22,667 nt of DNA from a virus (taxonomy: Duplodnaviria > Heunggongvirae > Uroviricota > Caudoviricetes), in IMG/VR virus record IMGVR_UViG_2778261501_000002, positions 1 to 22,667 of that record. The stretch is one strand, 5' to 3'. Every line of letters starts with the position of its first letter. Position 1 is the first letter of the stretch. The position numbers and the translations under genes were made by a program. The notes under the pieces were generated by a model. It was not told the DNA's origin. It worked only from the letters and a program-made list of their open reading frames with translations, and searched no databases. Shown here one piece after another: positions 8,141 through 10,926 of this stretch.

Positions 8141-8490
8141 TGGAGCCATACAGCCTCACACTCGATGAGGCCTGTCATTTTCTCAAGATATCCAGACCGA
8201 CTGCCATTAACTGGATACGCACAGGGCGTCTTCAGGCAACACGCAAAGATCCCACTAAGAATAAATCTCCTTACCTCACAACACGACAAGCCTGCATTGC
8301 GGCTCTTCAGTCTCCGCTGCATACTGTCCAGGTGAGCGCGGGTGATGGCATAACAGAGGAAAGAAAATGTCACTCTTCCGCAGAGGTGAAATATGGTACG
8401 CCAGTTTCACATTGCCGAACGGTAAAAGATTTAAACAGTCTCTTGGAACAAAGGACAAAAGGCAGGCGACAGAACTCCATGACAAGCTAA
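8140..8490 (+). CDS. xis: Excisionase (P22/DLP12-type Xis)
   Basis: 116-aa ORF starting [11 protein letters not shown]..., immediately upstream of and overlapping int by 124 nt; resembles P22-type Xis as recalled. Confidence 0.7.
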
Positions 8491-9530
8491 AGGCTGAAGC
8501 ATGGCGGGTCAGCAAACTTGGTGAAATACCTGATATAACGTTCGAGGAAGCGTGTGTCAGGTGGCTTGAAGAGAAAGCACATAAAAAATCGCTGGACGAT
8601 GACAAAAGCCGGATCGGATTCTGGCTTCAACATTTCGCAGGAATGCAACTAAGAGACATTACTGAATCAAAAATTTATTCAGCAATGCAGAAAATGACGA
8701 ACCGGCGTCATGAGGAAAACTGGAAACTCAGGGCAGAAGCATGCAGAAAAAAAGGGAAACCTGTTCCAGAATACACGCCAAAACCAGCGTCCGTTGCAAC
8801 GAAGGCTACGCATCTTTCATTTATAAAGGCCCTACTAAGAGCCGCAGAGCGTGAATGGAAAATGCTGGATAAGGCACCAATTATTAAAGTGCCTCAACCA
8901 AAGAATAAACGGATCCGCTGGCTGGAGCCCCATGAAGCACAAAGGCTGATTGATGAATGTCCGGAGCCATTAAAGTCTGTTGTTGAATTTGCACTGGCAA
9001 CAGGCTTAAGACGCTCGAACATCATCAACCTTGAATGGCAACAAATAGATATGCAGCGCCGGGTGGCATGGATAAACCCGGAAGAGAGTAAATCAAACCG
9101 CGCAATTGGCGTTGCGCTGAATGATACTGCATGTCGCGTATTGAAAAAACAAATCGGGAATCATCACCGTTGGGTATTTGTGTACAAGGAAAGCTGTACC
9201 AAACCAGACGGAACGAAAGCGCCAACAGTAAGGAAGATGCGGTATGACGCAAACACAGCCTGGAAAGCGGCGCTGAGACGGGCTGGTATTGATGATTTCA
9301 GATTTCACGACTTGAGACACACCTGGGCAAGTTGGCTGGTTCAAGCCGGAGTCCCGTTGTCAGTGTTACAGGAAATGGGAGGCTGGGAGTCTATCGAAAT
9401 GGTTCGTCGATATGCTCACCTTGCACCTAATCACCTTACCGAACACGCACGGCAAATAGACTCGATCCTGAACCCATCGGTCCCAAATTTGTCCCAGTCA
9501 AAAAATAAGGAAGGTACTAATGATGTGTAA
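8367..9530 (+). CDS. int: Tyrosine integrase (lambdoid P22/DLP12-type)
   Basis: 387-aa ORF, GAGGA SD 6 nt upstream of ATG 8367; conserved HDLRHTW and RRYAHL catalytic motifs; strong resemblance to enterobacterial prophage integrases as recalled. Confidence 0.92.
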
Positions 9531-9702
9531 CTTATTGATTTTAATGGTGCCGATAATAGGAGTGTAACACGCGATAAATCTTGTGTTCGGGTCTTCTTCT
9601 ACGACCTTCGCAACTACCTGATTTAACGATTTTTACGCACACTGATAATCTGGCATTCATCATGCACATGATAAACGCCCCTAAACTTTAACGGGGTGGA
9701 AA

Positions 9703-10926
9703 ATGAAATACAAGCCGGATCAATACATCATATCTGATAGTTACGGAGTTTATTACGTCAGGATTTCAATTCCTGTATGGCTTCGTAATGCATTTGGTGG
9801 AAGAAAAACTCTCGTCCGTAGTCTGAACACTTCCGATCTTCGTGTGGCTCGTAGGAAGCGTGATGTTATAGCCGACGAATTTCACCACATCAGGCAAATT
9901 GCAGAGCCGCCAAAACCGGACAGCTTGCAGGACACGATCAGCTTTTTAAAGAGCGTGGCTAAGTACGCGAAAGCTGCCCCGAAAGCATCAGCTCCGATTA
10001 TCTACCAATGCCCCTCTCTGAATAAGATGTTAGAGATTTACCTCACGCATAACGCTGATCGCCTGAAAATGGGAACATTAAGCAAGACCAGAAAAGCCGT
10101 TGAACTGTTCCTGAATTACCTGCGAAAGAAGGATGTTGAACTAAACGATATCAACCGTACCACCGTTACAGGCTGGCTTGATCATCTCCGAGAGACAAAG
10201 GCAGTCCAGACAGTGGCTAACTACCTATCAGCAATGGCAAACATTCTCGATCTTGCCTCTTCCCGATACCAGGACGCCCCACCGCTGGAAACTAACGTGT
10301 TCAGGGGGCATAAACTCAACACAGCGCAGAGCCGCCAGAGTTACGAGGCATTCACGGACGAAGAAATTACGAAGCTCATTAGCACGTTTAACAAGTTAGG
10401 AGAGGACGAATTAAGGGATGTGAGCGCCATCGCCGCTTATAGCGGAATGCGCATCAATGAAATAGCCAGTTTGAAATCTGACAATATCCGTGAAGTTGAG
10501 GGGGTGTTATGTTTCGAGGTGACGGAGGGTAAGACACGCAATGCGGCGCGGTTGGTTCCACTTCATAGTGCGATTAGAAAAATGGTTCTGGAACGCTGCC
10601 AGAAGCCGCACAACGGCTTTTTATTCTACCGTGCAAGTGTGACCAAGAGACAGGACGGCAAGCGCTCCTCATGGCACGTAAACCGCTTTGGACGGCTTAA
10701 ACGCGATATTCTCCCAGGGCAGGAAAACAAGGTGTTTCACTCGTACCGCCATGCAGTGATCAGTAAGCTAAACGCCGCCGGAGTGGATGAATCTCGTATT
10801 GCCTTGCTCGCGGGTCACTCATTTGGAGAAACTGAGTCTTTCAAGACGTATTCGAAGAGTGTTCCTGAGCGTATTATGAAGGAGTTAGCGGGGTATATTG
10901 AATTAATAAATTACAACGTCCAGTAA
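9703..10926 (+). CDS. Tyrosine recombinase/integrase (second, distinct integrase)
   Basis: 407-aa ORF; catalytic motifs MRINEIASL (box I Arg), HSYRH, GHSF, and Tyr in FKTYSK; unrelated in sequence to the upstream integrase. Confidence 0.85.
   Translation: MKYKPDQYIISDSYGVYYVRISIPVWLRNAFGGRKTLVRSLNTSDLRVARRKRDVIADEFHHIRQIAEPPKPDSLQDTISFLKSVAKYAKAAPKASAPIIYQCPSLNKMLEIYLTHNADRLKMGTLSKTRKAVELFLNYLRKKDVELNDINRTTVTGWLDHLRETKAVQTVANYLSAMANILDLASSRYQDAPPLETNVFRGHKLNTAQSRQSYEAFTDEEITKLISTFNKLGEDELRDVSAIAAYSGMRINEIASLKSDNIREVEGVLCFEVTEGKTRNAARLVPLHSAIRKMVLERCQKPHNGFLFYRASVTKRQDGKRSSWHVNRFGRLKRDILPGQENKVFHSYRHAVISKLNAAGVDESRIALLAGHSFGETESFKTYSKSVPERIMKELAGYIELINYNVQ

Follow-up and report, generated by a model that had tools for sequence, protein, structure and literature searches.

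Tandem insertion at the tRNA gene thrW has a precedent in E. coli O157:H7 Sakai, in which (according to the RefSeq annotation) the lambda-like remnant Sp1 and the P4-like satellite Sp2 lie in tandem. The locus analysed here, a 22,667-nt stretch of DNA (the window) in which a decayed lambdoid prophage (P1) adjoins a small integrative element (E2), shares with Sakai the site itself (proA-thrW ... yagP), a P22-type integrase gene (intD in Sakai) beside thrW, a small second element whose integrase is unrelated, and a partial thrW copy at the internal boundary. The two differ in that the small element of Sakai is tRNA-distal and P4-like (sid, psu, primase), whereas E2 is tRNA-proximal and has no P4 genes in common with it. 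Tandem prophages at thrW are also known from O157 clade 8 (PMC9997748) and from Shigella flexneri, where the serotype-converting phage SfI is integrated into the attL of SfX (PMC3306764). The SfI/SfX pair uses the att site and integrase family of P1, and its second phage entered the tRNA-proximal attL of the first, as E2 probably did here, but it combines related integrases with one long core, whereas the integrases described here are unrelated and their identity blocks measure ~46 nt and 20 nt. The cryptic prophage CP4-6 of K-12 (IntF, thrW ... ptwF) occupies the same site and carries its integrase gene at the tRNA-distal end, reading inward as int2 of E2 does; it differs in its longer repeat (~49 nt) and in being a 34-kb island with metabolic and toxin-antitoxin cargo.

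Capsid-forming PICIs (cf-PICIs) have reportedly been described alongside other phage satellites. Their head module is complete, comprising the major capsid protein (MCP), portal, protease, small terminase/HNH and head-tail connectors. The E2 family is similar to them in size (12.5-17 kb), in tRNA integration and in the possession of an integrase, a replication module and an HK97-fold capsid gene of its own, and one relative carries Kiwa defence genes in its cargo slot. E2 differs from cf-PICIs in having no genes for portal, protease, terminase, HNH, head-tail connectors or AlpA, and in encoding a second small tyrosine recombinase and a conserved 616-aa tape-measure-like protein. Seen beside these systems, the int1-int2 junction falls into an ordinary, amply documented class of tandem insertions, and E2 is the less ordinary part of the locus.

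The integrase genes and the att core between them

The preliminary description of this DNA had noted two unrelated tyrosine integrase genes arranged head-to-tail and separated by 172 bp, the first of them within a P22-type xis-int module, and both observations were upheld. The genes are intact and on the same strand (gap at 9531-9702; Table 1), and each has Pfam support; their products can be aligned in the catalytic domain only (24% identity there), where the R..HxxR..H..Y positions of Int2 line up with those of Int1. Int1 is 100% identical to the Int of Shigella phage SfIV and 89.9% identical to that of P22, and it shows the full-length similarity, adjacent xis and thrW target of a P22/SfIV-type int-xis module. 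The xis product (phrog_2907), annotated in RefSeq as an HTH protein, scored 1.7e-5 against the TIGR01764 excisionase domain, i.e. under the curated cut-off. Int2 additionally has DUF6538 and SAM-like N-terminal domains (Pfam), and a sequence search of it against the PDB returned no match. K-12 IntF was considered as an Int2 homologue and rejected (no significant similarity). The int2 gene lies at the tRNA-distal end of E2 and reads inward, and each of the two integrase genes is found beside the att site of its own element.

Table 1. Positions of the annotated features within the window (E2 left arm, core and element limits included)
Feature	Position	Strand	Evidence and remarks
P1, right-hand part of a degraded SfIV/SfV-like lambdoid myovirus prophage	1-9543		PHROG hits; extends left past the window
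xis, excisionase of P1	8141-8490	+	phrog_2907 excisionase, 1e-50; overlaps int1 start
int1, P22/SfIV-type tyrosine integrase of P1	8367-9530	+	387 aa; PF00589 (Phage_integrase), 3e-48
att core, hybrid site	9544-9563	-	last 19 nt of thrW plus 1 nt; left direct repeat of E2; endpoint of P1 homology
E2, 13.7-kb integrative element	9564-22667		runs ~580 bp past the window to the core inside thrW
E2 left arm (part of attP) and int2 upstream region	9564-9702	+	holds 14-nt thrW-like block CTACGACCTTCGCA at 9599-9612
int2, DUF6538-type tyrosine integrase of E2	9703-10926	+	407 aa; PF00589 (Phage_integrase), 2e-13; PF20172; PF13102
Coiled-coil, Gly-rich, tape-measure-like protein	11574-13424	-	616 aa; phrog_16051, 2e-98; conserved across the E2 family
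Lambda-gpE-type (HK97-fold) major capsid protein	13728-14759	-	PF03864 full length, 8e-15
Putative replication module: HTH_36 protein and DUF6945 initiator-like protein	16833-18028	-	
Three palindromic 18-nt iterons	19213-19294		32-nt spacing
Small catalytic-domain-only tyrosine recombinase of E2	19979-20611	+	186-210 aa; PF00589, 3.5e-16

An att core had been predicted to lie in the gap, and one is present there, 14 nt after the end of int1 and 139 nt before the start of int2. The accompanying statement that the gap holds no tRNA-like sequence was mistaken: TGGTGCCGATAATAGGAGT at 9545-9563 matches, in reverse complement and without a mismatch, the 3'-terminal 19 nt of the tRNA-Thr(CGU) gene thrW (..ACTCCTATTATCGGCACCA). 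ARAGORN and Rfam found no tRNA in the window because the tRNA is represented by this 19-nt fragment only, the gene itself being situated ~580 bp beyond. The 19-nt core occurs once in the window (against 0 occurrences expected in shuffles); a second copy is found inside the annotated tRNA-Thr gene past the right end of the window (13.7 kb away in genome AR_0128), and a third, missed by the ungapped search, was recovered by alignment with a 1-nt deletion. In XYEH3934 the two ends of an E2-type element carry identical copies of the 20-nt repeat ATGGTGCCGATAATAGGAGT, and in AR_0128 the 19-nt core stands at both ends of E2 (preceded by an A at both, as seen in the alignment). At its far-left boundary P1 is delimited by a 45-nt thrW copy (locus L001, 7224-7268), so that direct repeats of the tRNA 3' end bound each element: for P1, the 45-nt copy and the shared junction core.

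The alignment of junctions comprised four types, namely int1 tail, core and E2 arm; E2 arm, core and thrW body; yagP' flank, core and E2 arm; and int1 tail, core and thrW body. The left arm of E2 is the same in RM10410 and is conserved block-wise with the relative in 22AR0322 (52% identity). The 46-nt thrW identity block of P1 ends 1 nt beyond the anticodon loop, which is consistent with strand exchange in that loop; P22-type integrases are said to exchange strands there. The gap contained weak repeats only, and a scan of 9400-9800 for promoters and terminators found none.

Occupancy of thrW and the order of integration

All four states of the thrW site were found among complete E. coli genomes: empty (948 genomes, counted with a synthetic empty-site query matched over >=80% of its length and 100% identical in ATCC 8739 and others), P1 only, E2-type only, and both (9 genomes). 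The order of the occupied array is yagP', 45-nt thrW copy, P1, 19-nt core, E2, thrW, proA. In roughly a thousand complete E. coli genomes or more (O157 and others), int1 is found without int2, directly at an intact thrW, and the match to the window ends exactly at 9563 and is followed by tRNA-Thr. Single P1 prophages at thrW occur in 7784 and APEC20/16; the latter has a complete P1 (~99% nucleotide identity, the match stopping at 9563) that adjoins thrW with no E2 in between; its left-hand genes and its Int protein are the same. Elements of the int2 type alone lie between yagP' and thrW, with matches beginning at the core, and XYEH3934 carries such an E2 variant flanked by its two 20-nt repeats. 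Independent instances of the tandem layout are 22AR0322 (integrase 52% identical) and the IMG/VR locus L041. The window is not identical to AR_0128, having ~2 kb more P1 sequence around 5783-7771.

We reason that the junction very probably results from the site-specific integration of two elements, one after the other, at the thrW hot spot, with the 172-bp gap as the seam of a tandem array between proA and yagP'. The attP of P1 (a decayed lambdoid element with an SfIV/P22-type integrase) would have contained ~46 nt of thrW, from the anticodon loop to the 3' end, and its integration would have brought the end of int1 to 14 nt from the tRNA. The attP of E2 would share only the last 20 nt of thrW; E2 would next have recombined with the thrW copy rebuilt by P1 and come to lie between int1 and the tRNA, with the 19-20 nt core at 9544-9563 remaining as its distal direct repeat. 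The expected circle junction of E2 would read ...CTGTTGATGGTGCCGATAATAGGAGTGTAACACGCG.... That P1 arrived first and E2 second is likely, and the attL of P1 is probably now split by E2, its int-proximal arm being separated by 13.7 kb from the part of thrW with the anticodon loop. Precise excision of P1 would thus be possible only after E2 has left, while E2, its integrase intact, would still be flanked by two perfect repeats.

The arrival order cannot be read from the junction sequence alone, as P1 entering the tRNA-distal junction of a resident E2 (yagP' flank, 19-nt core, E2 arm) by a crossover in the shared 19 nt would lead to an identical structure. Near-identity between the P1 arm and the chromosomal flank extends over ~37 nt including the core, so a crossover within the core is formally possible. 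We nevertheless consider it unlikely that E2 came first: the distal junction lacks the anticodon stem-loop spanned by the identity block of P1, and newcomers whose position has been observed (the MS6192 island, SfI) enter next to the tRNA. In MS6192/3 a third, CP4-6-like island is situated between E2 and thrW, which indicates that the newest arrival adjoins the tRNA. Moreover, P1 is heavily decayed, whereas E2 is intact, with 100% identity in seven complete genomes and 99.7% in two more; APEC20/16 has the same P1 and left flank without E2, and the exact E2 was never found alone, only 89% variants.

Tandem integration was one of the options raised in the preliminary description, and the occurrence of each element alone at thrW, together with the empty sites, supports it. 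The nested arrangement raised alongside it, with E2 transposed or integrated within the interior of P1 and int2 as P1 cargo, gains something from the fact that the 14-nt tail after int1 and the core also belong to the attP of P1, so that E2 touches sequence brought by P1. It is nonetheless very improbable, given that E2 sits in the att/tRNA boundary and not in the body of P1: the insertion point is the tRNA 3' end with E2-specific 20-nt repeats around it, E2 variants use the same point in P1-free chromosomes, and nothing of P1 is found to the right of E2. A single composite element, moving as a unit with two integrases and with att sites elsewhere, could be imagined from the nine genomes in which both genes are intact and adjacent, and from IMG/VR prophage calls, which often merge such neighbours into one contig. 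The integrases do not always co-occur within one element, however; int1-only and int2-type-only genomes exist, either half can occupy the site by itself, flanked by direct repeats of its own, and the att core stands exactly at the seam, which makes the composite reading improbable in the extreme.

As a product of tandem integration, the junction would be a fully resolved textbook case of elements with different integrases stacking at one tRNA gene, and would yield a usable rule: from the length of a partial tRNA copy one can read the identity block of the element next to it, with the latest insertion nearest to the tRNA. In practice, software for prophage calling fuses such arrays into one 'prophage'. 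The two elements are rarely found in tandem: independence would predict roughly 90 genomes (a rough estimate from their spread among the 60 matches listed), and 9 + 3 were counted. P1 was considered as the helper of E2; the capsid proteins of the two are annotated as different types, and no positive association between the elements was found.

Content and affiliation of E2

We regard E2 as more valuable than the junction. It has kept a capsid gene without any packaging machinery and belongs to a family of tRNA-integrating elements of Enterobacterales, 12.5-17 kb in length, with a lambda-E-type capsid gene and without portal or terminase genes; both were absent from E2 and from every relative examined, in which the MCP alone was recognised, together with small flanking ORFs and the 616-aa protein. 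Members are inserted at the 3' ends of tRNA-Thr(CGU), tRNA-Leu(CAA) or tRNA-Gly(CCC), and their core consists of a DUF6538-type integrase, the capsid protein, a 119-aa putative decoration protein and the 616-aa protein (the C-terminal part of which is 40% identical to a phapecoctavirus protein). A second small tyrosine recombinase is often present next to an iteron-bearing stretch without annotated genes, and the replication, integrase and cargo modules are exchangeable. Size and gene order are constant, though the MCPs are 22-57% identical. By a rough estimate, about 7% of the complete E. coli genomes appear to carry the relative E2b.

The AF2 model of the E2 MCP (pLDDT 74) had phage capsids as its top Foldseek hits (5e-17). 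Compared with INPHARED phages, the MCP gave tblastn hits of 22-27% only, and megablast with E2 gave no nucleotide-level match for the family. The capsid annotations of the two elements differ, that of E2 being lambda-E-type (PF03864) and that of P1 a capsid gene beside an HK97-family prohead protease. The genes of P1 further include an invertase, tail-fibre fragments, tail tube, a truncated sheath, a TerL-portal fusion ORF, cII/cro/cI, yfdR, yfdT, xis and int.

The constant size and gene order despite divergent MCPs, and the lack of packaging genes, raise the possibility that E2 represents an undescribed phage satellite family of Enterobacterales, a reading that we hold only tentatively. No paper describing the family was found, and the literature searched in full text on the domains DUF6538 and DUF6945, and on satellites at thrW, held nothing relevant. 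If E2 is a satellite, it would build or remodel capsids with its own shell protein and borrow all else from a helper, the window would represent a satellite beside a dead prophage (not two prophages), and the known ways of helper-phage exploitation would be widened in a very well studied host. E2 does not have the features of a P4-like satellite: no E2 ORF had a Pfam, PHROG or NCBIfam hit to the P4 hallmark genes (Sid/Psu/Delta, alpha primase-helicase). Nor does it have the complete head module of the cf-PICIs, of which only the MCP was recognised. Among the E2 ORFs, NCBIfam returned generic recombinase models only, no excisionase was identified, and PADLOC gave no defence hit for the ten ORFs submitted.

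In relatives of E2 the replication module is swapped for one of the DEAD-box helicase type. The iterons sit in a 1.5-kb stretch (18487-19978) with short ORFs only and no annotated gene, and MS6192 has four iteron copies. Inverted repeats flank ~1 kb beside the small recombinase gene, but the relatives are colinear and an invertible switch is unsupported. The small recombinase was also considered as a truncated copy of Int2, and this was rejected; it is 94-97% conserved in relatives at other tRNA sites.

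Two integrase genes and the thrW core between them

The int1 and int2 genes lie on the same strand, 172 bp apart, and their products can be aligned over the catalytic domain only (24% identity; the R..HxxR..H..Y positions line up), so that we consider them members of one superfamily and of unrelated families. The reading frames, the Pfam matches and this alignment agree with the preliminary description, which had reported two unrelated tyrosine integrases. Its assignment of int1 to a P22-type xis-int module was likewise correct, since Int1 matches the Int of the Shigella phage SfIV at 100% identity over all 387 residues and P22 Int at 89.9%, and its gene is preceded by an excisionase gene (phrog_2907, 1e-50).

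Coordinates of the features discussed, by element (window positions)
Feature	Position	Strand	Description
P1 tail sheath	1512-2651		379 aa, internal segment gone; intact relative ~498 aa
P1 TerL-portal fusion ORF	2814-3944		376 aa; N-terminal part similar to large terminase, C-terminal part to portal families
int1	8367-9530	+	intact ORF, 387 aa; PF00589 at 3e-48
thrW-derived core	9545-9563		TGGTGCCGATAATAGGAGT
Block in E2 int-proximal arm	9599-9612		CTACGACCTTCGCA
int2	9703-10926	+	intact ORF, 407 aa; PF00589 at 2e-13, DUF6538 and SAM-like N-terminal domains
616-aa protein of E2	11574-13424	-	coiled-coil, Gly-rich, tape-measure-like
Stretch without annotated gene	18487-19978	.	1.5 kb, short ORFs only, beside the small tyrosine recombinase
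Three palindromic iterons	19213-19294	.	ACATCAATTTGATGTGTA, 18 nt each, 32-nt spacing

An att core had been expected between the two genes, and one was indeed found: it is the 19-nt 3' end of thrW (tRNA-Thr(CGU)) in reverse complement, contrary to the earlier remark that no tRNA-like sequence is visible in the gap. The 19-mer occurs once in the window and in none of the shuffled sequences. ARAGORN and Rfam reported no tRNA in the window, because the tRNA is represented there by this fragment only. In strain AR_0128 a second copy is situated inside the annotated tRNA-Thr gene beside proA, 13.7 kb rightward and ~580 bp past the window end.

The direct repeat of E2 (the capsid-gene element right of the junction) is ATGGTGCCGATAATAGGAGT, 20 nt long (the 19-nt core and one more shared A), and flanks the E2 variant of XYEH3934 at each end; the identity block between the tRNA and P1 (the decayed prophage to the left) is ~46 nt and ends one base beyond the anticodon loop, whereas that of E2 is 20 nt only. 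In O157:H7 and many other genomes the match to the window ends at 9563 and is followed by an intact thrW, while in four genomes (including RM10410 and XYEH3934) it starts at ~9527-9535 and runs rightwards at 89% identity, without int1. A four-way alignment gave clean recombinant junctions, the core joining int1 tail to E2 arm (the window), E2 arm to thrW body, yagP' flank to E2 arm (RM10410) and int1 tail to thrW body (strain 7784). The block in the int-proximal arm of E2 is identical to thrW positions just past the 19-nt core, though displaced by ~35 nt, and 8 of its 14 nt are preserved in the relative with a 52%-identity integrase; it could be what is left of a tRNA block that was once longer, or a site bound by the integrase.

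Occupancy of thrW and order of arrival

The window matched eight complete E. coli chromosomes (AR_0128, AR_0118, Ecol_224 and MS6192 among them) at 99.8-100% identity over 91% of its length. The preliminary description had proposed a search for genomes lacking one or both elements, and all states of the site were recovered. An artificial join of yagP' flank, core and thrW-proA, used as the empty-site query, was matched over >=80% of its length in 948 of 5426 complete genomes, with 100% identity in ATCC 8739 and others. P1 alone is found in APEC20/16, as a complete 35-kb-plus prophage with int1 14 nt from thrW and with the same left-hand genes and Int protein; the E2 type alone is found in XYEH3934 (yagP' / core / 13.5 kb / thrW / proA), and nine genomes carry both. 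Each element thus occurs on its own, contrary to the alternative of two integrases always travelling in a single element, and the repeats, breakpoints and single-occupancy genomes support the reading of the 172-bp gap as the junction of two elements integrated in tandem. In AR_0128, 45 nt copied from the 3' part of thrW mark the boundary of P1 on the far left, and an ungapped search missed this copy because it lacks one C; on this basis the array reads yagP' / 45-nt thrW copy / P1 remnant / 19-20 nt core / E2 / thrW / proA.

This junction is an ordinary case of a known phenomenon, as thrW is a recognised integration hot spot (PMC3203889) with documented tandem arrays: Sp1 (lambda-like, intD beside thrW) and Sp2 (P4-like) of Sakai, which meet at a partial copy of thrW, SfI and SfX (PMC3306764), and O157 clade 8 (PMC9997748). 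CP4-6 of K-12 shares the site with E2, although its integrase is unrelated to Int2, and a 19-nt duplication was reported for IE_SE11-1 of SE11 at thrW (PMC2608844).

The sequence alone is compatible with either order of integration, and E2 may have come first and P1 later; we nevertheless favour the arrival of P1 before E2. P1 is heavily deleted, while E2, intact and bounded by perfect repeats, shows 99.7-100% identity across all nine genomes; the same P1 and flanking genes occur without E2 (APEC20/16), and exact E2 was not seen without P1 among the complete genomes searched. The distal junction of E2 lacks the anticodon loop, where P22-type integrases reportedly exchange strands. Moreover, MS6192/MS6193 carry a third, CP4-6-like island between E2 and thrW that is absent from the other seven genomes, so that the newest arrival adjoins the tRNA, and experiments at thrW showed SfI inserting into the attL of an SfX already in place (PMC3306764); both argue in the same direction. 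The P1 arm copies ~20 nt of what naturally lies downstream of thrW, and therefore a P1 lysogen still presents E2 with an essentially native target. Following P1, integration of E2 next to the tRNA would have split the P1 attL, with its int-proximal arm now 13.7 kb away from the remainder of thrW, and E2 may in principle still be excisable.

The third island (MS6192, L055/L056, NZ_CP054940.1 ~318000-355000) exceeds 36 kb, has a ~49-nt thrW copy at its E2-side junction and encodes an IntF-like integrase pseudogene, a sucrose PTS operon and DUF262 proteins; its helicase/DUF1156/ATPase cluster is defence-system-like in appearance.

The E2 element and its relatives

Besides int2, E2 comprises a phrog_1090 ORF, the 616-aa protein, a 65-aa ORF, the capsid protein, ORFs of 119, 71, 127 and 144 aa, an HTH_36 protein, a DUF6945 initiator-like protein, a small tyrosine recombinase (catalytic domain only) and several further ORFs. 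The capsid protein is of lambda-gpE type (PF03864 over its full length), and its predicted structure (pLDDT 74) resembles the capsids of phages PhiTE, Bas63, ICP1, Sf14 and lambda. Portal, protease and terminase genes were not found among those of E2, INPHARED phages gave no nucleotide match, and PADLOC matched no defence genes among ten E2 ORFs. The C-terminal ~385 aa of the 616-aa protein share 40% identity with an uncharacterised protein of the 150-kb phapecoctaviruses (ESCO5, phAPEC8-like); this homologue is called 'tape measure' in some records and the E2 protein 'TolA' in RefSeq, labels that look like guesses. The iteron-bearing stretch, in which Rfam matched no family, is a candidate origin or operator; iteron copy number varies (four in MS6192), and relatives preserve a comparable gene-free gap (1.2-1.4 kb).

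Relatives of the capsid protein are nearly confined to Enterobacterales, and gene order is constant among E2 relatives at MCP identities of 22-57%. Family members lie between direct repeats, and three tRNA types serve as their sites: tRNA-Thr(CGU) (12.5-14.1 kb, at least seven IMG/VR loci), tRNA-Leu(CAA) (13.8 and 16.8 kb) and tRNA-Gly(CCC). Constant size and synteny argue for E2 being a functional element rather than debris, and the absence of packaging genes suggests a possible dependence on a helper. E2 lacks the defining features of both P4-like satellites and cf-PICIs. Modules are exchanged among members, and a recent transfer between genera is indicated by the 16.8-kb element of Pseudenterobacter timonensis (L012, NZ_FCOP01000011.1), located at tRNA-Leu(CAA), in which a capsid module with 94% nucleotide identity to that of E2 (MCP protein 100%) is combined with a different integrase. 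Replication modules also vary, and in a metagenomic relative (L005/L006 9541-11108) KwaA/KwaB (Kiwa anti-phage defence) take the place of the 616-aa protein between capsid gene and integrase. E2b, the relative with the 52%-identity integrase, appears by itself at thrW in complete E. coli genomes, several hundred of them if a 60-row spread is roughly extrapolated, and in tandem with P1 in three. We regard E2 as a modestly interesting lead, the junction itself being a known kind of structure.

Among IMG/VR UViGs (L028-L054), 'viral' contigs of 19-76 kb that were predicted from the genomes of isolates carry E2-family elements close to their ends, which suggests that prophage callers routinely fuse them with adjoining prophages or flanks.

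The P1 remnant

P1, a lambdoid myovirus of SfIV/SfV-like type (complete relative in APEC20/16), has decayed and retains an invertase, tail-fibre fragments, tail tube, shortened sheath, cII/cro/cI, yfdR, yfdT, xis and int. About 2 kb of its DNA (~5783-7771; phrog_5286 ORF, yfdR and others) has been lost from each of the eight complete genomes closest to the window, which accordingly comes from a less-decayed relative that the complete-genome set does not contain. The 376-aa ORF and the 379-aa sheath are in-frame deletion products. Outside the window, the left-hand accessory region of P1 contains an annotated 82-nt tRNA-Pro gene (L001 11494-11575; L010 2243-2324), neighboured by HEPN, SOS-response peptidase and DUF2188 genes and a umuC fragment.
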